A stretch of DNA of 64,000 nucleotides from IMG/VR virus record IMGVR_UViG_3300017700_000469, positions 64,001-128,000 of that record. One strand, given 5' to 3'. The position numbers were made by a program, and so were the translations under genes. Below the pieces are notes generated by a model. The model was given only the letters and a program-made list of their open reading frames with translations. It was not told the DNA's origin and made no database searches. The DNA is from a virus (lineage: Duplodnaviria > Heunggongvirae > Uroviricota > Caudoviricetes). Of this stretch, positions 1-61,383 are shown one piece after another. Positions within the stretch are counted from its first letter, which is position 1. Each line of letters opens with the position of its first letter.

Positions 1-18
1 CCTGCGGGCTTCCCTCAG

Positions 19-48
19 AACACGACAGACGCGGCGGTCCGGTTTTCA
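19..48 (-). promoter_or_regulatory. Class 2 (ECF-type) promoter motif TGAAAACC-N16-CGTGTT, pointing out of the window
   Basis: Plus strand aacacg(19-24)-16 nt-ggttttca(41-48), same geometry as 8 other copies. Confidence 0.6.
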
Positions 49-130
49 CTTTTCGCGCAGAACAAAATGCGCGATCGGGAATAGGGAGAGCGAGAGAAGC
101 TCGCGGAAGACGGGATTTGACCCACACCCA

Positions 131-162
131 CCCCTGTTGCTCCCGATCGGGAACAACAGGGG
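131..162. repeat. 32-bp near-perfect palindrome
   Basis: CCCCTGTTGCTCCCGATCGGGAACAACAGGGG; self-complementary except one pair. Confidence 0.9.
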
Positions 163-1030
163 CGGTGTTAGATCACCCGAGAAGATCGGCGTCACGAACG
201 CCGCAGTCGTCATCATCGACACGACCCGCTCGAACCTTGAACGCTAGCGTCAGAAGAACGTGCTCAGTCTTCTGACGTGCTCGGCTCTCGATCCGCGCGG
301 CAGAGATACCTGCGGGTTGTAAGAAATGCTGGTGCTCTTTCCTTACGCGCCCTCGACAGATCGTGCCGCGTCAGTGGTTGAGTCCGCTGCGCTGAGCCGG
401 CGGAAAGGGCTGCAACCGACGTGCCACCCCTACATTCGTTGCAATCCGCAAATTTGACCCCACCCCTACGTTCGGAACAATCGGTGTCGTCGGCACGACC
501 GGCACCCTCGCTACAATCGTTATTACGTTTGCTTTGTTGTTCGTCGAAGTCTACGTTATGCTAGCGGGTTGAACGTCTGCGGCTCGTGCTCGTGCTCGTG
601 CGATGCGATCGCAGACCACGAGCCGCAACCCGCTAGCGTTTGTCGACATACGATCGCACGAGCACGAGCCGCAGACGTCGGCCGACGTCGCGAGCCACGC
701 CACGAGCACGAGCCGCAGACGTCCGGCGCACCCCTGCCGGCGCTCGTGCGCCACGCCGGCAGCCGATCGTGCCGATCGTGCCGATCAGGTGGGTGGTAGG
801 GGATATGCCCCTAGGGGTAGGGATTGTGCGGGTTAGCACGAATGGGTGGGTTGTATCGACTGTGCCGAATGTGATGGTCGCATCGGCTGGGCTAATGCGG
901 GGTGATTTTGCGGGTTGTAACCGCGCGAGTGAGAGGCCGGACAATCGTCAATTCGATACTGAATGTTACCGCTGATTCAATCGCTGTACTATGCGCAACC
1001 CGTTGCCACGCCACGCTATAACCGCTATTC

Positions 1031-1086
1031 TAGTATTTAGTATTGTAGTACATACTACTACTACTTCTATAATACATAATACAATT
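1031..1086. other. AT-rich tract (candidate unwinding element)
   Basis: 12 G/C in 56 nt (about 21% GC, hand count) in an otherwise GC-rich window. Confidence 0.5.
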
Positions 1087-1473
1087 AGCGCATATAGAGG
1101 GAAATGTAGGAACGTCAAAATCGGGTAAACTGTACTAAGCCCTAAAATCGTCATAACCCGCAACATGCTCGTGGCTTGCGTCGATTTTGCCTAGCGTTTG
1201 CCGATACTGCGGCCGGATTCAAGCCACGAGCCACGCCGGCACGAGCCGCAACCCGCCGGACGTCTGCGGCCGGACGTCTGCGGCCGGCACCGATCGCACG
1301 AGCCGCAGACCACGCAACCCGCCGGACGTCCGAACGTCGGCACGAGCCGCAACCCGCCGGACGTCGCCGGCCGCAGACCACGAGCACGAGCGCAAACGCA
1401 AGCAACCCGCTAGCGCGTTAGGCGCTAGCGGGTTGCGGGTTGCTCGTGCTCGTGCTCGTGCTCGTGGCGTGGC

Positions 1474-1758
1474 TTAGTAGCCGGCCGATTCTCGCCGGCG
1501 TGGCGATGCGCCTACGCGCGAAACGAGCGCCCATTTTTGCGGGTTGCGATATTCGCGCCGCGCTCCGATCGTTTCCAGAATCGTTATCGTTTCCGATTCA
1601 TTCAAGCCGGCCGCGCTCGTTAGTGCGCCGATCGTGCGGAACGTAAAGCGCGAATCGGAAAGCGCGAGCCGCAGACGTTCGGCCGGCGTGGCGATCGGTG
1701 CCGGCGTGGCGTGGCTCGTGAAACTACCGAACAAACGCGCGAAAAACTTGCGAATCAT
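1474..1758 (-). CDS. Small hypothetical protein, paralog of 12132-12545
   Basis: SD-like AAGGGGA before ATG; shares blocks RFTFRT/RYHFRS, GARREYRN/GAREEYRN and SRVG with the paralog. Confidence 0.75.
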   Translation of the reverse strand: MIRKFFARLFGSFTSHATPAPIATPAERLRLALSDSRFTFRTIGALTSAAGLNESETITILETIGARREYRNPQKWALVSRVGASPRRRESAGY

Positions 1759-1854
1759 AAAATCCCCTTTAATCGGAAGAATCGGAAAATCGGTAATCGG
1801 TTCGGACGTCTGCGGCCGGACGTCTGCGGCTCGTGGCGTGGCGTGGCTTGTGGC

Positions 1855-2049
1855 TTAGCGGCCGGCGTGGCTCGTGGCTCGTGCCGACGTCGGCCGGACG
1901 TCTGCGGCCGGCTTAGCGGCTCGTTTTGCACGGATCGCACGAGCGCGGATGTCATCCCAAACGATTGCGACGTATCCCGTTCCGAGCGCGGCCGCGCCAA
2001 TGAGAATCGATTCAACCGCGCCACCGCACATTCCACATGCAATCAGCAT
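1855..2049 (-). CDS. Small putative membrane protein
   Basis: SD-like AAGGG 8 nt upstream; CxxC followed by a hydrophobic stretch; the C-terminus runs into repeats. Confidence 0.45.
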   Translation of the reverse strand: MLIACGMCGGAVESILIGAAALGTGYVAIVWDDIRARAIRAKRAAKPAADVRPTSARATSHAGR

Positions 2050-2207
2050 AATCGTTACCCTTGTCCTAAGCCGAAACGTCGGCAGAATCGGATCGATCGA
2101 TACTTAGCGTAATAAGCGCGGCGCGCTTCCGTTGCAAAACGTCGCCGGCGTTTGTTTCCGTCTATTGTGGCGTTTTGCATTGTTGCGGCTCGTGCTCGTG
2201 CTCGTGC

Positions 2208-2869
2208 TCGTTTCCGTTACATCTCAACATTACACTAGCTTTGACGTCTAAGCAAATGAAACGAGAAAAATTCTTGCGACGTCCGGCCGCAGACCACGAG
2301 CACGAGCCGCAACCCGCCGGACGTCTGCGGCTCGTGGCGTGGCTCGTGGCGCTCGCGGCCGACGTCTGCGGCTCGCGAGCGATCGCAACCCGCCGGCGAC
2401 GTCTACAAACGACGCAACCCGCAAACGCTAGGCGCTTGCGGGTTGCTCGTGACTATCGGCCGCGAGCCGATTACCTAGCGGGGCGCGCCGGACGTCGGGC
2501 GCTTTCCCGTTGTTAGCGTTTGGATTGTCTGCGCAAGTTTGCGCTCGGCGCTTTCCGAAACAAGCCGGCCGACGTCGGCCGCAGATTGTGGCGCGTAGTT
2601 TCGCATTGTTTGGCTCGTTGTTATTTGGCTAGCGTGGCATTCAACCGATTGACGCCGGCCGACATTTTCTTAGCTGCCGGCGACGTCGTGCCGACGTTCA
2701 AAGCAAGCAAAACGACGCAAACCACGAGAATCGATACTGCGGCATTTTGTAACATTGTTGCGGCTCGTGGCTTGCTTGCTTGTCGTTTCCGTTACATCTC
2801 AACATTACACTAGCTTTGACGTCTAAGCAAATGAAACGAGAAAAATTCTTGCGACGTCCGGCCGCAGAC
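2208..2869 (+). repeat. 87-bp exact direct repeat (2208-2294 and 2783-2869)
   Basis: TCGTTTCCGTTACATCTCAACATTACACTAGCTTTGACGTCTAAGCAAATGAAACGAGAAAAATTCTTGCGACGTCCGGCCGCAGAC occurs twice; partial inverted pieces at about 3183-3252. Confidence 0.9.
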
Positions 2870-3298
2870 GTCGCGCGGCTCGTGCTCGTGGCGATGCGAT
2901 CGCAACCCGCCGGACGTCGGCCGCAGTAGATAGGGAAACGAGCACGAGCCACGCCACGAGCAACCCGCCGGACGTTCGGACGTCTGCGGCTCGCGAGCGA
3001 TCGCAACCCGCCGGACGTTCGGACGTCTGCGGCTCGTGCCGACGTCGCCGGCCGCAGACCACGAGCACGAGCACGAGCACGAGCGCGGCCGACGTCTGCG
3101 GCTCGTGGCTCGTGCTCGTGGCGATGCGATCGCACGAGCAACCCGCCGGACGTTCGGACGTCTGCGGCCGGATTGTCGATAGTCAAAGCCGGCGTAATAA
3201 TTCCGCGCTCGTTTCGTTTGCTTATCTGCGCCTATGGTCTAAGCTAGTGTTATGCGACTGACTATCGCAGACAACCAAGCAACCCGCGAGCCTACATC

Positions 3299-4732
3299 AT
3301 GTGCCAAAATTGCAACGAAACGAGCCACGCAACCCGGACAATCGGACAATTGACGTTCGGTGACATCGTAGGATTAGAGCCGATTGTGCCGATTGAAACG
3401 CCGGCTATCCTGCCGCGCTTGCCGGACGTCACCGATTGTGACGATTGTGAGGATGAAGCCGAAGTTATCGAATGTGAGAATTGTTCCTGCGATGTCGGTG
3501 ACGATAGCTATACCGATGATAGCGGTGACGTCTATTGTGAGGAATGTTATCACGAGATGTATAGCTCGTGCGAATCGTGCGGTGACGTCGTGCCGGCCGA
3601 TGACATCAAGCAAGTATCGGTGCGCGTATGGCGCAACGGTCGCCGGCAATCGATCGATTCTTGCTTGTGCGAATCGTGTTTCGATCGCGATTATTTCACA
3701 TGCGCCGATTGTAACGGCACGTCGCCGGACGATGTCGGTGGTACCAATTGTGACGGCGATCGCGTTTGTGAGAGTTGCAGCGAAGATTACAGTTATTGCG
3801 AATCGTGCAGTTCTACGATTCACAACGATAATTCCAACTATAACGAGCGCACCGGCTGCACCGAATGTGACGATTGTTACAGTCCGGGCGGCGATGGCGA
3901 TAAAACCGAATTTGACGCTAAGCGTTTCCGCCGGCCGAATGACATCGCCACGCGCTGCGGCTCGTTGCGATCGTATGGCGTGGAATTAGAGACGTCCGTT
4001 TGTGACGGTCACACCGATTTAGAGGGTCGTGTCTACTTTGGCGCTTGTGAGGATGGCTCCATTGATGGCATGGAGTTCGTTTCTTCCGTTCTTTCCGGTG
4101 ATGCCGGATTAAAGGCTATTGACGATTTTTGCGATCAAGCCGATGGTTTCGAGACTGACAATAAATGCGGTTTTCACGCTCACATCGGAATTGCCGATCT
4201 TACGGATTCGCAACGGCTTTCCGTTTGTATGGCTTACGCGCTAAGCGCCGACGTCTGGCGCTCGTTTGTATCGGAAACACGCCGGCGGAATACCTACTGC
4301 GGCGCGAATAAATGGAGCGCCGACGACGTCGCGAGCGCCGGCAGTTTTGAGGCGCTCGCGGCCGCGCAAACAGACCGTTATCAATGGGTTAACTTGCAAG
4401 CCTATTCGCGCCATAAAACCGTCGAAATCCGTCTACATGGCGCAACCCTTGAATCCGACAAAATCTGCAATTGGGTTGTAGCGCATGTGCGGTTTATCGA
4501 CGTCGTATCGAAAATGACGTTCGCACAATTGCGCAAGCTATTCGCCGGCACCGATTCGGATAAGTTTGCGGCGCTTGCTGCAATGTGGCCGGCCGACGTC
4601 GCGACGTTCTATCACGAGCGCGCCGCTAAGTTTGGAACGGAATACGCCACGCCGGCCGCAGACGTCGCGAGCCGCAAGCCACGAGCACGAGCCGCGCGGC
4701 GCTTGCGTGGCGTGGCTCGTGCGATCGCATAA
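3299..4732 (+). CDS. Putative amidoligase (Amidoligase_2 / COOH-NH2 ligase, glutamine-synthetase-like fold) with N-terminal Cys-rich repeats
   Basis: Motifs YGVELET, DGSIDGMEFVS, CGFHAHIG, RYQWVN and TVEIRLH; ten CxxC pairs in the first 200 aa. Confidence 0.85.
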   Translation: MCQNCNETSHATRTIGQLTFGDIVGLEPIVPIETPAILPRLPDVTDCDDCEDEAEVIECENCSCDVGDDSYTDDSGDVYCEECYHEMYSSCESCGDVVPADDIKQVSVRVWRNGRRQSIDSCLCESCFDRDYFTCADCNGTSPDDVGGTNCDGDRVCESCSEDYSYCESCSSTIHNDNSNYNERTGCTECDDCYSPGGDGDKTEFDAKRFRRPNDIATRCGSLRSYGVELETSVCDGHTDLEGRVYFGACEDGSIDGMEFVSSVLSGDAGLKAIDDFCDQADGFETDNKCGFHAHIGIADLTDSQRLSVCMAYALSADVWRSFVSETRRRNTYCGANKWSADDVASAGSFEALAAAQTDRYQWVNLQAYSRHKTVEIRLHGATLESDKICNWVVAHVRFIDVVSKMTFAQLRKLFAGTDSDKFAALAAMWPADVATFYHERAAKFGTEYATPAADVASRKPRARAARRLRGVARAIA

Positions 4733-4879
4733 CGCCGGCCGACGTCTGCGGCCGAACGTCCGGCCGCAGACCACGAGCCACGAGCACGAGCCAAGCGCGA
4801 GCCGCAGACGTCGGCCGCAGACCACGAGCCAAGCGCCGGACGTCGGCAACCCTACACTATCACAACCGGAACAATCATC

Positions 4880-5872
4880 ATGTGCGGAATCTTCGGCGGA
4901 ATCGGAACGAACGTCAACATGGGCACAATCCGTGCTCTAGCGCTTATCAATCGCGAGCGCGGAACCGATTCAATCGGCATCTTCGATAATAGCGGTAAAG
5001 CCATCAAGCGCGCTTGCGATCCGTTGTCGGCGCTCGCGGCCGACGACGTCGGCGCGTGGCTCGCGACGTCTGCGGCTCGCGCTTGGTTCATTGCTGGCCA
5101 TACGCGCCACGCCACGCGCGGCCGGATTACCGAAAATAACGCGCATCCGTTCCGTTACGGTAATGTCATCGGTTCGCATAATGGCATGTGCGCCGCGCCT
5201 ATCAAATATGCCGTAGATTCCGAATTTCTCATCGATCGGCTCGCGAGCCACGCCGGCGATTATCAAACCGCGCTTGCCGATATTGACGGTTATTGGGGAT
5301 TGACGTGGTTTGACGGTGCTGCGTTTTGGATCAGCACGCACGGTAATTCCGTTGCGATGGCTCGTGCGGCCGATGGCAATTATTACTATTCGTCCGACGC
5401 TAAGCATCTTGCGGCTTGTATCGGTCCTTCCGAGCCGGTGACGATTCTGCGGGATGGCGCGACTGTAAAGTTTGAACTGAATACTCTAGCGCCGCAGATT
5501 ATGCCGGCGTTTGTTTCTAAGGTGCCGGCGCTCGTTTGGGATACGCGCAAAACGTCCGGCGGCCGGACGTCTGCGGCTCGCGATTTATTCGACGTCGGCA
5601 CGAGCCACGCCACGAGCAAGCGCCGCAAGCGCAAAGCGCGACGTGCCGAACGTGCCGATCGTATCAGCTATGACGAACAATGCTACGGTGACACCCTTGC
5701 CGATGAAGCCGGATACGGCGATCTCGCTGGCTTTATGGCTTGTGAGAGTATTTTCAGTGAACGGGTTGCTATCGAATGGCTCGAAGCTGAGGCTTATGGC
5801 GTTCCTGTCAAGAATGACGTTTGGAAGGACATCGACGATAAAACCGATTTTACCGATGGCATTCCGTTCTAA
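4880..5872 (+). CDS. Stand-alone class II glutamine amidotransferase (Ntn hydrolase)
   Basis: N-terminal MCGIFG (catalytic Cys2), RGTDSIG, GHTRHAT, HPF, HNG, DSE. Confidence 0.9.
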   Translation: MCGIFGGIGTNVNMGTIRALALINRERGTDSIGIFDNSGKAIKRACDPLSALAADDVGAWLATSAARAWFIAGHTRHATRGRITENNAHPFRYGNVIGSHNGMCAAPIKYAVDSEFLIDRLASHAGDYQTALADIDGYWGLTWFDGAAFWISTHGNSVAMARAADGNYYYSSDAKHLAACIGPSEPVTILRDGATVKFELNTLAPQIMPAFVSKVPALVWDTRKTSGGRTSAARDLFDVGTSHATSKRRKRKARRAERADRISYDEQCYGDTLADEAGYGDLAGFMACESIFSERVAIEWLEAEAYGVPVKNDVWKDIDDKTDFTDGIPF

Positions 5873-7091
5873 GCCGGCCGACGTCGCGAGCGATCGCAAC
5901 CCGCCGGACGTCTGCGGCTCGCGAGCACGAGCACGAGCCACGCCGGCGAACGTCCGGCCGCAGACCACGAGCGCCACGAGCCACGCCACGAGCACGAGCC
6001 ACGCCGGCCGCGCTCGTGCTCGTGGCGATGCGATCGCACGAGCCGCAAGCGCACGAGCCACGCCACGAGCAAGCGCGGCCGCAGACCACGAGCAACCCGC
6101 CGGACGTTCGGACGTCCGGCCGCAGACCACGAGCACGAGCAACCCGCAAGCGCGGCCGACGGCGCGAGCCACGCCACAAGCGCGGCCGCAGACCACGAGC
6201 CGCAGACCACGAGCCACGAGCAAGCGCCGGCCTATGATCGCACGAGCCACGAGCCACGAGCACGAGCAACCCGCCGGACGTCCGGCCGCGCTCGTGGCGT
6301 GGCTCGTGCTCGTGCTCGTGGCGTGGCTCGCGAGCGATCGCAACCCGCCGGACGTTCGGACGTCGGCCGCAGACGTCCGGCCGCAGACCACGAGCCACGA
6401 GCAAGCGCCGGCCGACGTCGCGACGTCTGCGGCTCGTGCTCGTGCCGACGTCCGGCCGCAAGCGCCACGAGCCACGCCGGCCGCAGACGTCGCAAGCGCT
6501 CGAATCGCGACGAGCCCGACAACCCGGACAAGCGCCACGATCGGTGCATCCGGCAATATCGGCACAACCCTCGCCACCGGACCCGCCCGTACAATCGCTA
6601 CAACCGGCCACACCGCGCCGGGCCATATCGAGTAACAGGCGCGATTTTCGATATGAAGTAACAGGGCCGACGTTCGGTATGAAAACGGCCTCGTGCATCT
6701 CTCAGCTTGAACTCGGTTCGAGCTTCTCCCGCCGGATTGTCGCGGGCTACAATCGGCTCGCCACGCATTGAAATTTCGGACCTGAAATTTCAATACACGT
6801 CTGTCCACTACCCGGTGGGTCGCCGACGACGTGCGAAGCCGGCTCGGCGCTGCGGCCCGACGTCTCGCGCTGCGGCGGCGCTGCTCCGCGCGGCTCGGCG
6901 CTGCGGGTTCGCCAGCTTTGGCGAATGAACGCCATCCGATCGGCACAAGTCGTCAAAGCTGCCGAAATGGCACCCGCAGGCTGTGACGTCGTAGGACGCG
7001 ATCTGCGGGCCTAGTGCCTCGGGACGACTGGGAAGACGTCGGAAGGGCTCGTCAGCGGCGAGCGTAGAGGCCAGCCGCCTCGGCCGCAGGG

Positions 7092-60469: not shown

Positions 60470-61297
60470 TTAACACGTCTCCGGTGGATTCTGGTTTTCA
60501 CTTTCGCGAGTTATGTCGGCGTCCAACTCGTCGTCGCTGATCGCCCCGACGCACCACGCCGCGAACCGAGTCACGAGGCCGGATATGCCGATGTTGAGCA
60601 TTGCAGCGATTTTGCCGTTTATCTCTTCCTTGTTCCGCCGACGCCGGAAGCTCCGCAGCAGCTTCTCGCCGGTGAAGACGGCCTTACGACCACGACCACG
60701 CTTGGAGGCTGCCAGGGCGTTGGCGGCGTCGATCTGGGCCTCGGGCGTCTCTTTACGGCAGACGATCTCCAAGTCCAGCAGCGTCAACCTGCGGGCGGCC
60801 ACAAGCTGTTGGACCGGCTCGGGCACCTTCAGTAGCCGAAGGCGAGCGTGAACCCATTTGGTGTCCCGCTTCAGTTCGTCGGCCGCCTGCCGCAGTGTGA
60901 CTCCGTCCGGGTACAGCGTGCTGATCGCCATCGCCTCTTCGAGCGGGTTCAAGTCCTTACGTTCGAGGTTCTCGGTGAAGTTCAGCAGGTGGGCTTGCCG
61001 CTCGTCGAGTCCGTTGAGGACCGTGGCCGCGATCTCGGGCCACTTCAGGTAGACGGTGTGCGCCTTGTATCGCCGGTGGCCGGCGATCAGTCGCCAGTCG
61101 TATCCCTCGGGAAGTCCAGGTACGTCAACAGCCGGCTGCACCCACACAGGGGTAAGCAGCCGGCCGTTTGATTTGATGCTGTCCGCGAGATCACTGACCG
61201 ATTGAAGTGTGAAGTCGCCTCGGCAGTTGAAGTCTGCGTCGTAGTAGATGCGACCGCACGGAAGTGCGAACACATCGTAGTCTTCAAGTCGCTTCAT
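60470..61297 (-). CDS. parB: ParB/Spo0J-like protein
   Basis: LADSIK, PVWV, LIAGHRRYKA, ENLERKDLNPLEEA, HTH; GGAG SD before ATG 61297. Confidence 0.85.
   Translation of the reverse strand: MKRLEDYDVFALPCGRIYYDADFNCRGDFTLQSVSDLADSIKSNGRLLTPVWVQPAVDVPGLPEGYDWRLIAGHRRYKAHTVYLKWPEIAATVLNGLDERQAHLLNFTENLERKDLNPLEEAMAISTLYPDGVTLRQAADELKRDTKWVHARLRLLKVPEPVQQLVAARRLTLLDLEIVCRKETPEAQIDAANALAASKRGRGRKAVFTGEKLLRSFRRRRNKEEINGKIAAMLNIGISGLVTRFAAWCVGAISDDELDADITRESENQNPPETC
60471..60500 (-). promoter_or_regulatory. Class 2 (ECF-type) promoter
   Basis: TGAAAACC-N15-CGTGTTA. Confidence 0.65.
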
Positions 61298-61311
61298 ACG
61301 TTTCTCCAAAG

Positions 61312-61383
61312 CTGCATCGCCTGGGCTCGAACCAGGAACCTTCGCATTAACAGTGCGCTGCTCTACCATTGAGCTACGATGCA
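61312..61383 (-). tRNA. tRNA-Asn(GTT)
   Basis: TGCATCG/CGATGCA acceptor, GCTC-AATGGTA-GAGC D arm, CTGTTAA loop, CCTGG-TTCGAGC-CCAGG T arm; no CCA. Confidence 0.93.

Follow-up and report, generated by a model that had tools for sequence, protein, structure and literature searches.

Private arrays of shuffled short words in a syntenic, oppositely oriented gene island of a large uncultured phage: possibly reshuffled cassette punctuation

An island of about 6 kb in the genome of a large phage is written largely in a few short words, and the question is what such words are for: whether they form a binding code for a protein, or whether their position matters and their sequence does not. The stretch of DNA analyzed (the window) is 64 kb long and is part of the 136.5-kb, circularly assembled genome of the phage under study (G000). 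All coordinates are positions in the window, and words were mapped over the whole genome. Relatives were identified via the PolA protein, and the related phages compared are G001, G002, G003, G004, and L160.

Word mapping revealed ten blocks (541–782, 1220–1510, 1660–1720, 1800–1912, 2273–2467, 2848–3172, 4645–4873, 5029–5084, 5551–5625, and 5872–6493), which total 2.2 kb within positions 541–6493. A dictionary of 11 GC-rich words of 6–8 nt, used in both orientations, covers 81% of the blocks versus 4% of the remaining genome. The density of CACGAG, CCGCAGAC, and GCAACCCGC is 13-, 83-, and 104-fold higher in the island than in the other 130 kb; GCAGACCACGAGC and GCAACCCGCCGGACGT each have 12 island copies and none elsewhere in the genome, and the longer words have zero copies outside the island. 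Enrichment of k-mers against the rest of the genome, a check proposed by an earlier sequence-only reading, thus marks the words as island-specific. Similarly, 14-mers with at least three copies cover 31% of the island versus 0.8% of the rest, and the numbers of distinct 6-mers (1340 vs. 1514–1653 in other 6.1-kb windows) and 7-mers (2359 vs. 3239–3576) are the genome minima. The 10-mer redundancy of the bulk was rejected as a special signal, as it matches the prediction of a Markov model, and the impression of a single motif at both island edges did not hold on checking.

TRF analysis detected only micro-arrays of 2–5 copies with periods of 5–14 nt and no fixed period. Forward and reverse words are mixed in every block, GACGTC occurs in more than 15 different sequence contexts, at least eight different words have variable flanks, and strings of several words (29–50 nt) are common to blocks kilobases apart in both orientations. 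The sequence-only reading, which had described words concatenated in both orientations without fixed period, was correct in this respect and in what it excluded: fixed-length repeats alternating with unique spacers, as in a CRISPR, were not found in the G000 island; the words are confined to one 6-kb island and are not dispersed genome-wide as REP/BIME elements are; and runs in G000 reach at most about 5 copies, which is not a simple VNTR. The arrays are 65–77% GC versus 50–55% for the island genes, and array base composition varies from phage to phage. True CRISPR arrays of quite different appearance are present in G001 and L160; CRISPR spacers of the related phages gave no match in the genomes compared here.

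The features of the island are as follows.

541–782, no strand: word block A, 242 nt without genes, to the left of the AT-rich core, with 12-mers seen at least three times; 61% dictionary cover, 11 forward and 7 reverse words.
783–1219, no strand: core without words or coding sequence, 49% GC over its whole length.
1220–1510, no strand: word block B, containing a terminator-like hairpin; fold z = −7.5.
1402–1436, minus: terminator-like hairpin of block B with a 15-bp stem, from the terminator scan.
1474–1758, minus: small ORF, 94 aa, with a good RBS and a word-coded N-terminal third.
1800–1912, no strand: word block C, the 3′ tail of ORF 1855–2049 plus the spacer before ORF 1474–1758.
1855–2049, minus: small ORF, 64 aa, with a hydrophobic helix and then a tail coded by words (PAADVRP.. 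TSH..).
2208–2301, minus: PeSL-like cassette copy 1, with a word-built hairpin (2275–2291), a T-run, and then a leftward candidate promoter.
2273–2467, no strand: word block D, between the terminator of the upstream cassette and cassette copy 1.
2414–2446, minus: terminator of the upstream cassette with a 15-bp stem, from the terminator scan.
2475–2606, minus: small ORF, 43 aa.
2621–2755, minus: small ORF, 44 aa, with a signal/TM-like start.
2783–2876, minus: PeSL-like cassette copy 2, with a hairpin (2851–2874), a T-run, and the same candidate promoter.
2848–3172, no strand: word block E, where the leftward cassettes diverge from the rightward amidoligase operon; 85% dictionary cover, folding over nearly its full length (z = −7.7).
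3299–4732, plus: amidoligase (PF12224, E 3.5e-13; PHROG amidoligase) with an N-terminal CxxC-repeat region.
4645–4873, no strand: word block F, which spans the end of the amidoligase gene, two hairpins, and a C/A-rich leader preceding the GATase; 16 forward and 5 reverse words, T only 7%.
4880–5872, plus: class-II glutamine amidotransferase-like protein (GATase), with PHROG matches and 136 homologues.
5872–6493, no strand: word block H, the largest at 622 nt, where the island converges with the leftward bulk genes; the dictionary, with 58 forward and 19 reverse words, covers 93% of it, and the fold z is −9.1.
6234–6635, plus: hypothetical ORF, 133 aa, a candidate within block H from translation.

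The blocks are located at cassette boundaries: D past a terminator and ahead of the next promoter, E in the divergence zone, F between two cistrons, and H at the convergent junction. Arrays of G004 and L160 are likewise located at cassette boundaries. The arms of the hairpin at 1402–1436 are GCAACCCGC and its complement, extended by inverted CACGAG/CTCGTG runs, and both 15-bp terminator stems as well as the promoter-proximal hairpins consist of words. The 94-nt hairpin-plus-promoter unit is present in two copies, 97% identical, each before different small genes; the candidate sigma70 promoter of copy 1 (TTGCTT, 17 nt, TAATGT) was read by eye and is below the scan threshold. The spacer of the duplicated promoter also contains GACGTC. 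Promoters lie downstream of blocks D and E, which may escape transcription. The region 1000–1130 holds the most AT-rich 100 nt of the genome (69% AT vs. a genome mean of 40%), and an AT-rich core between arrays is also present in G002, G003, and G004. An Rfam search returned nothing close to threshold.

Both large island genes are on the strand opposite to the bulk and favor A/T-ending codons, as the sequence-only reading had noticed: their GC3 is 0.58–0.60 versus 0.72–0.84 in the bulk, and CAA makes up 92% of the Gln codons, a usage that looks foreign. Its claim that words also run inside these genes was borne out. In the amidoligase, with word stretches at 4324–4364 and 4645–4732, the final ~30 residues are word-coded, and the two word-coded stretches of the GATase (5029–5084 and 5551–5625) coincide with regions that are variable among homologues in the alignment. 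The amidoligase/GATase pair was rejected as the cause of the arrays: several homologous GATase loci lack arrays, indicating that the gene pair is cargo.

Comparison with the relatives showed that, in four of them, the same map position is occupied by a gene island that also runs opposite to the bulk; its arrays are placed correspondingly but use different vocabularies. The gene order TerL ... island ... ECF sigma/integrase ... PolA/ParB ... primase ... capsid is held in G000, G002, G003, and G004, and in each of these the island genes are antiparallel to the bulk. The vocabulary of each relative is private, yet core pieces are in common: CGCAGAC in G000, G002, and G003, and GCGGGTTGC in G000 and G002. 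Between G002 and G003, island genes and the AT-rich core are collinear with 67–75% identity whereas the arrays are unalignable. Unlike G000, G004 and L160 contain long heptamer, octamer, and 14-mer runs. The arrays therefore act like satellite DNA under concerted evolution, with position kept and sequence turned over among relatives. Local slippage or conversion, suggested earlier as the means of maintenance, is supported by the micro-tandem runs, the shared 29–50-nt strings, and the unalignable arrays at orthologous positions.

Searches beyond these phages were negative. Neither the amidoligase nor one left-flank protein retrieved relatives, megablast of the island against cultured phages gave no match, and the PolA protein search yielded no cultured relative; no relative exceeding ~70% nucleotide identity was found, and hence no close relative (above 90%). 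Exact-word scans of IMG/VR with one 16-mer and one 15-mer returned single chance matches only, indicating no other viral contig with a shared vocabulary, and multi-copy word matches were seen neither in viral collections nor among the bacterial matches listed. The clade carries integrases and attP, some relatives are classed as proviruses, and the phage is probably temperate. A host search with the 45-nt attP tRNA-Thr fragment found no exact match, and a three-word pattern gave only single chance matches among the matches listed (at least 120 bacterial contigs). Two hints, no more than a lead, point to a cyanobacterial host. RCCGGY and CGATCG are retained in the genome, a pattern that accompanies orphan methylases, and the HIP1 octamer GCGATCGC is one of the island words, with 10 of its 25 genome copies inside the island.

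The sequence-only reading had called the words palindrome-rich. The words do carry palindromes, and perfect palindromes of 10–16 bp reach 4.3 per kb in the island versus 0.67 per kb in the rest; however, the kinds are not island-specific. The entire 130-kb bulk lacks 40 of the 64 possible hexamer palindromes, one of the strongest site purges that we can cite, and the island palindromes are exactly the six hexamers that the bulk also tolerates and over-uses. The arrays of G000 contain no forbidden palindrome, as against a mean of 20–25 and a minimum of 7 in Markov simulations, and the arrays of relatives contain none versus 25, 6, and 5 expected. The seeming palindrome preference of the island thus results from the genome-wide loss. 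A special purge of restriction sites in the island was rejected for hexamer palindromes, since the bulk is purged equally.

Hairpin potential is strong in the arrays of G000 and G003 (z = −6 to −9), whereas folding of the G004 and L160 arrays (z about 0 and −1) does not exceed that of shuffled sequence. Hairpin stacks were therefore rejected as a common function, and a structural RNA or DNA role is not the common denominator of the arrays.

The explanation that we favor, tentatively and at somewhat under even odds, is that the island is an accessory/early cassette module whose own punctuation has been multiplied into restriction-safe arrays. The island would be a syntenic, oppositely oriented module of a large uncultured phage, and a hyperplastic region of self-contained promoter–gene–terminator cassettes of the moron/PeSL type. 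The words coincide with the punctuation of the island, and with tails of its small proteins, and may have three sources: the arms of terminator stems (GCAACCCGC and its complement), the post-stop/leader motif CCGCAGAC followed by C/A-rich runs (CACGAG, CCACGCC), and GACGTC-centered hairpins immediately upstream of promoters. Copied many times over, turned around, and reordered, these pieces would have built up the GC-rich arrays without genes that separate cassettes, presumably by replication slippage, template switching, short-homology recombination, and inversion, and would have spread into permissive gene ends to give low-complexity protein tails. The arrays are subject to the selection that purged 40 of the 64 hexamer palindromes genome-wide, so that only safe words are reused. 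The reverse direction could equally apply, with punctuation built out of array words rather than seeding them.

Relatives have the same block at the same position with different words, and the words are therefore best read as fast-evolving, restriction-safe filler or punctuation, not as a common protein-binding code. Their function would be independent of sequence: GC-rich spacers may insulate the strong AT-rich promoters from one another and from converging bulk transcription. Further roles may include hairpin stacks at cassette ends, unstructured leaders, and homology tracts for cassette shuffling. Against mere filler, the presence of about 2.2 kb of it in a packaged genome argues for some selected role.

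Among the alternatives, it is unlikely, though worth weighing, that the island is a collapsed long direct terminal repeat with a host-takeover module of the SPO1/T5 kind, in which arrays and AT-rich core serve DNA entry, end protection, or concatemer cutting and packaging. The nearest cultured TerL homologues are from Herelleviridae (SPO1, K, and A511 types; ~24% identity over 94–97% of the protein), although packaging mode is poorly predicted by a similarity this low, and Pfam places the TerL in the GpA class. Phages of these types have non-permuted genomes with long terminal repeats, the SPO1 repeat carries the host-takeover module, and the layout is alike, with the gene majority on one strand and the island on the other (PMC7414437). 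Two circular assemblies have end overlaps of 123 and 127 nt (123 nt in G000), compatible with collapsed repeats, and the T5 terminal repeat holds untranslated repeat regions among pre-early genes (10.1101/866236). On the other hand, a clade with integrases, attP, and provirus-classed relatives differs from lytic SPO1 or T5, and the island is 14–37 kb away from TerL. The repeats of T5 have a conserved order and include DnaA boxes (10.1101/866236), whereas the island words are replaced from one relative to the next and the island has no DnaA box; moreover, the equal palindrome purge in island and bulk means that the island is not specially restriction-proofed.

The sequence-only reading had preferred a high-density protein-binding platform. 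That a phage or host DNA-binding protein recognizes the words as iterons, parS-like sites, or operator decoys, in a replication origin, partition centromere, or regulator sponge, appears improbable, even though site density is very high, long perfect palindromes are enriched, the AT-richest 100 nt of the genome lie between blocks A and B like an adjacent unwinding element, GACGTC sits in the duplicated-promoter spacer, and the genome encodes a ParB. A parS field would be expected to repeat a single defined type of site (usually palindromic, ~16 bp) rather than at least eight words with variable flanks, and the TRF periods and copy numbers do not show the direct repeats of one 17–22-bp unit, evenly spaced and in helical phase, expected of an iteron origin. 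The parB gene (60470–61369), close to which parS sites would be expected to cluster, is 54 kb from the island, outside which the long words are absent. ParB proteins of four phages are 47–51% identical with conserved cores, yet their word vocabularies are unrelated. Furthermore, the island lacks a DnaA or IHF consensus, a second AT-rich spot adjoins the primase gene instead, and the palindromes used are only those that the genome tolerates. The GC-skew inflection proposed as a check was not found; cumulative skew is monotonic genome-wide, which is weak evidence because one-strand transcription dominates the skew. As an origin, parS, or operator platform, the proposal was accordingly not supported.

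A comparably low probability is given to arrays that are mainly coding, with words selected as low-complexity, disordered, or membrane-anchored tails and small proteins, as proposed for Borg repeats, which give disordered regions (10.1101/2022.05.18.492195). Five proteins read the words in one consistent frame (PAADV, TSAAR, TSHATS), and early proteins of G003 have acidic tails encoded by words of the G003 island. Block H is open in several frames, with 2 stops versus 14 in shuffles; however, this deficit is a by-product of T-poor words. The hypothetical ORF 6234–6635 reads as a CTCGTG-run helix and then a word tail in the frame used by other island proteins, resembling ORF 1855–2049, but a search with its unique C-terminus found no homologue. 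In addition, orientations are mixed inside each block, blocks A, D, and E lack a plausible start codon or reading frame, and unit lengths of 5, 6, 7, 9, and 14 nt are mostly not multiples of three.

Still less probable is a defense decoy or nuclease attenuator, in which the G/T-rich orientation (GCTCGTGG, GGCGTGG) mimics Chi-like or host recognition sequences and protects entering DNA from RecBCD/AddAB-type nucleases or other defenses. GCTCGTGG differs at one position from E. coli Chi, the exact E. coli Chi octamer occurs three times in L160 arrays, and arrays of relatives are also GTGG- or TGGT-rich in one orientation. Against this, the likeness consists of short G-rich strings, and the Chi sequence of the host may differ from that of E. 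coli; the decoy words are absent from the remaining phage genome, and the three-word pattern gave the chance matches described above. A mis-assembled tangle of short repeats is hardly credible: block H exceeds a short-read insert, so that its exact order and copy number are not vouched for, and the G002 and G004 contigs break within arrays, but unique genes anchor the island internally and on both sides in one 136.5-kb circular contig, words run in frame into conserved proteins, and the architecture recurs at this map position in assemblies made independently from other samples.

The favored reading of reshuffled cassette punctuation has partial counterparts in known systems. The moron concept reportedly goes back to Hendrix and colleagues. 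Like morons and the SPO1 host-takeover module (PMC7414437, PMC6873191), the island has promoter–gene–terminator units with their own candidate promoters and terminators, odd composition (the low GC3 noted above), a fixed position, transcription against the bulk, and small genes, whereas those modules are not described as embedded in word arrays. PeSLs of T4-type phages combine strong sigma70-like promoters with stem-loop terminators in near-identical repeats before small non-essential ORFs of a plastic region (Arbiol et al, 2010; PMC2839356). The duplicated 94-nt unit of the island and the 15-bp-stem hairpin closing each cassette resemble them; however, PeSL units are about 50–60 nt, the island has kilobases of shuffled sub-words, and private vocabularies, words in coding regions, and position-kept sequence turnover are not reported for PeSLs. 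No recombination between cassettes was observed in the island.

The T5 first-step-transfer region has gene-free stretches of 0.2–1.2 kb with direct and inverted repeats and palindromes among small early genes (Davison, 2020; 10.1101/866236), and the island likewise intersperses untranslated repeats, inverted ones included, and palindromes with small early genes. In nearly all T5-like phages the order of the T5 repeats is unchanged, and they include paired DnaA boxes (10.1101/866236), whereas the island arrays are private to each phage. Borg tandem repeats (Schoelmerich et al; 10.1101/2022.05.18.492195) share region- and genome-unique units, rapid turnover, intergenic or gene-end location, an excess of A over T on the sense strand, and the generation of disordered stretches in proteins. 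Borg arrays consist of perfect head-to-tail copies and extend over the whole element, whereas the words of G000 occur shuffled and in either orientation within a single island. Cyanobacterial STRR heptamer arrays are said to have been described by Mazel et al in 1990. STRR and HIP1 (PMC4390886, PMC5861425) resemble the island in their short, intergenic hexamer or heptamer tandem arrays but, unlike the island words, are spread throughout the host genome.

It is possible, though we consider it doubtful, that position-conserved, sequence-private satellite arrays are a general selected component of phage early/accessory modules rather than debris, that is, a sequence-independent spacer or insulator growing only from restriction-safe words under extreme site avoidance. 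Such array DNA is ignored by annotation pipelines and breaks assemblers. If the arrays are selected, they would be a class of phage non-coding DNA that counts through its position and bulk properties and can drift freely in sequence, and they would bear on the insulation and exchange of strong early/accessory cassettes, on the safe gain of DNA by genomes under extreme restriction pressure, and on the origin of low-complexity protein tails.

G000 is a phage, assembled as a single contig of 136,515 bp that is taken as circular because its ends overlap by 123 nt; the window corresponds to positions 64,001–128,000 of this contig. It encodes a GpA-type large terminase, a P22-like coat protein, a family-A DNA polymerase, ParB and an integrase, and the minus strand carries nearly all of its genes. 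The provirus class given by IMG/VR to the related contigs G005, G007 and G009, together with the integrase and the tRNA-Thr attP present in the window, suggests that the clade consists of temperate phages of 100–150 kb.

The sequence-only reading had described an island at 550–6650 written in few words, which were joined in both orientations with no fixed period, and this description held when k-mers were compared with the remaining 130 kb of the genome (the bulk). The density of CACGAG was 13-fold higher in 550–6650 than in the bulk, and those of CCGCAGAC and GCAACCCGC were 83-fold and 104-fold higher, respectively. The two long words of that reading were found in 12 copies each in the island and in none outside. 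The 14-mers with at least 3 copies covered 31% of the island versus 0.8% of the rest; shorter k-mers were uninformative in this biased genome, as indicated by a Markov control. The island also contained fewer distinct 6- and 7-mers than every other window of the same size. Ten word blocks with a summed length of 2,209 nt were identified, and a dictionary of eleven words (6–8 nt, both orientations) covered 81% of the blocks and only 4% of the bulk, reaching 93% in block 5872–6493 (622 nt). Tandem structure was restricted to runs of 2–5 copies with periods of 5–14 nt, and strings of 29–50 nt were repeated, direct and inverted, between blocks kilobases apart. One of the words is GCGATCGC, the cyanobacterial HIP1 octamer, with 10 of its 25 genome copies inside the island (541–6493).

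The elements of the island are listed from left to right (window positions).

541–782: block A, the leftmost element.
Between blocks A and B: non-word stretch of 440 nt, containing the AT-richest 100 nt of the entire genome (1000–1130, 69% AT, non-coding).
1220–1510: block B, right of the 440-nt stretch.
Between blocks B and E, leftward: two cassettes of small ORFs.
2848–3172: block E, between the leftward cassettes and the rightward operon.
Right of block E, rightward: operon in which the gene of a CxxC-repeat amidoligase is followed by that of a class-II amidotransferase (GATase), with block F (4645–4873) between the two genes.
5872–6493: block H, the right end, at a head-on junction with the leftward bulk genes.

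Each leftward cassette is headed by a 94-nt unit (copies 97% identical), in which a word-built hairpin with a T-run is followed by a candidate sigma70 promoter, and is closed by a hairpin with a 15-bp stem whose arms are GCAACCCGC and its complement. C/A-rich stretches with CCGCAGAC are located after stop codons and before start codons. The words therefore coincide with the punctuation of the island, namely terminator arms, promoter-proximal hairpins and C/A-rich stretches at stops and starts. A perfect 11-bp inverted repeat, ATTGAAATTTC ... GAAATTTCAAT with arms 6 nt apart, was observed at about 6768–6795, where non-coding DNA separates the island from the first gene of the bulk; it looks like an operator.

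Words also encode the tails of several proteins, constantly in one frame (PAADV, TSAAR, TSHATS). Their reported presence inside the GATase and amidoligase coding sequences was confirmed, and the word-coded segments of the amidotransferase are regions variable among 136 homologues, not clean insertions. The two large genes are indeed opposite in strand to the rest, forming a rightward operon against nearly all genes on the minus strand, and they are richer in A/T-ending codons than the bulk (GC3 of 0.58–0.60 versus 0.72–0.84), with CAG and CTG rare and GGG, CCC and CCA absent. A candidate unannotated gene of 133 aa (6234–6635, plus strand) lies inside the largest word block. Its predicted product has a hydrophobic helix encoded by runs of CTCGTG, followed by a disordered tail in the word frame common to other island proteins; a search for homologues of this product found none.

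Palindromes of the restriction-site type are purged from the genome to an extreme degree. Of 64 hexamer palindromes, 40 are wholly absent from the 130-kb bulk, including CCCGGG, CCGCGG, GGCGCC and GGGCCC (0 observed versus about 96 expected for each); the number absent is 43 in G003, 42 in G002, 9 in G004 and 17 in G001, all related phage contigs. The island follows the purge with two single exceptions. It was claimed to be rich in palindromes, and six are abundant there, yet these are exactly the six over-used in the bulk (GACGTC, CGGCCG, GCCGGC, CGATCG, TCGCGA and ATCGAT), so that their kind is not specific to the island. Since the purge is equal in both, special restriction-proofing of the island was rejected at the hexamer-palindrome level. 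Real blocks contained 0 forbidden sites, whereas sequences simulated from their 2- to 4-mer statistics contained 20–25 (minimum 7), with the same outcome for the arrays of three relatives, indicating that the choice of words was constrained by the selection under which the entire genome took shape. Re-copying an already safe word is the simplest route to added DNA without a forbidden site. G000 keeps RCCGGY without YCCGGR and over-uses CGATCG, a pattern reminiscent of sites that orphan methylases protect in cyanobacteria (PMC4390886, PMC6105098). Among tetramers, GCGC and CTAG are 2–5-fold richer, and GATC, GTAC, CATG and TCGA poorer, in the islands of G000, G002, G003 and G004 than in their own bulk at nearly equal overall GC, differences that may reflect codon usage rather than site selection.

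A family-A DNA polymerase search gave 13 related viral contigs (50–63% identity), and four large relatives, G001–G004, were examined over their full length. Three of the four have their own word island.

G003: 1–5800.
G002: spanning the contig ends.
G004: 102.9–106.1 kb.

The repeat-rich spot of G001 was rejected as a word island, being a genuine CRISPR array (84,080–85,110, or 4080–5110 of the retrieved stretch L142; 15 repeats, 30–31-nt spacers). Another phage-borne array is present in the more distant phage L160 (1760–2230; 6 repeats, 37–38-nt spacers). A large ORF adjoins each array, and the spacers of both matched no genome of this set.

The genes of G000, G002, G003 and G004 follow one order, TerL ... 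island ... ECF sigma/integrase ... PolA/ParB ... primase ... capsid, with island genes antiparallel to the bulk. The recurring layout in relatives comprises an AT-rich core flanked by gene-free GC-rich arrays (65–77% GC), predicted strong promoters, arrays after a zinc-ribbon gene, and small genes that have a stop codon, GCAGAC-like motifs and tandem C/A-rich words ahead of them. L160 (41% GC) has arrays of words, cassettes with AT-rich promoters, small genes, CxxC-amidoligase and amidotransferase in the order of G000. The vocabularies differ in every relative, and only core pieces are in common (CGCAGAC in G000, G002 and G003; GCGGGTTGC in G000 and G002). The islands of G002 and G003 are collinear at 67–75% nucleotide identity, including the AT-rich core, except for the arrays, which have matching positions, and similar lengths in 3 of 4 cases, but cannot be aligned. 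Such retention of position with turnover of sequence typifies satellite-like DNA under concerted evolution. The AT-rich cores of G003 (150–210) and G002 (500–560) share a 61-nt stretch (90% identity) with an 18-bp perfect palindrome of GATAAT-type hexamers, which resembles a Fur box.

By analogy, the arrays might serve as a packaging or DNA-entry signal: the closest cultured terminases (24% identity) are of the SPO1 type, whose phages have long terminal repeats bearing a host-takeover module (PMC7414437, PMC6873191). However, the clade looks temperate, and the arrays differ from the repeat regions of T5, where order is conserved and DnaA boxes are present (10.1101/866236). A replication origin, also proposed earlier, fits only the AT-rich core between blocks A and B among the features tested; the blocks have no iteron-like period, no DnaA or IHF consensus was found, the suggested GC-skew inflection was not seen, and the second AT-richest spot, near genome position 290, adjoins the primase-helicase gene. 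The proposed parS field for the encoded ParB is unlikely, as ParB is about 50% identical across phages with unrelated words, parB lies 54 kb from the island, and the word types are many with variable flanks. In G000 and G003 the blocks form nested quasi-palindromes, with folds far more stable than those of shuffled sequences (z = −6.2 to −9.1). No excess folding over shuffles was seen for the G004 and L160 arrays, so hairpin stacks are not the shared property, although they may matter locally because they extend both terminators.

The closest described analogues each fit the island only in part: the promoter and stem-loop cassettes (PeSLs) of T4-type phages (PMC2839356), T5 repeat regions (10.1101/866236), morons, Borg tandem repeats (10.1101/2022.05.18.492195) and cyanobacterial STRR/HIP1 (PMC4390886). 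The arrays would grow via slippage, template switching and recombination at short homologies, while cassettes might be shuffled as in PeSL regions (PMC2839356). The role of the arrays would be independent of sequence: they would insulate as GC-rich spacers and punctuate the cassettes. These results show that the island is a real, sharply bounded and clade-syntenic accessory/early module, that a single private set of restriction-safe words makes up its spacers, stems, leaders and protein tails, and that it turns over among relatives with its place retained.
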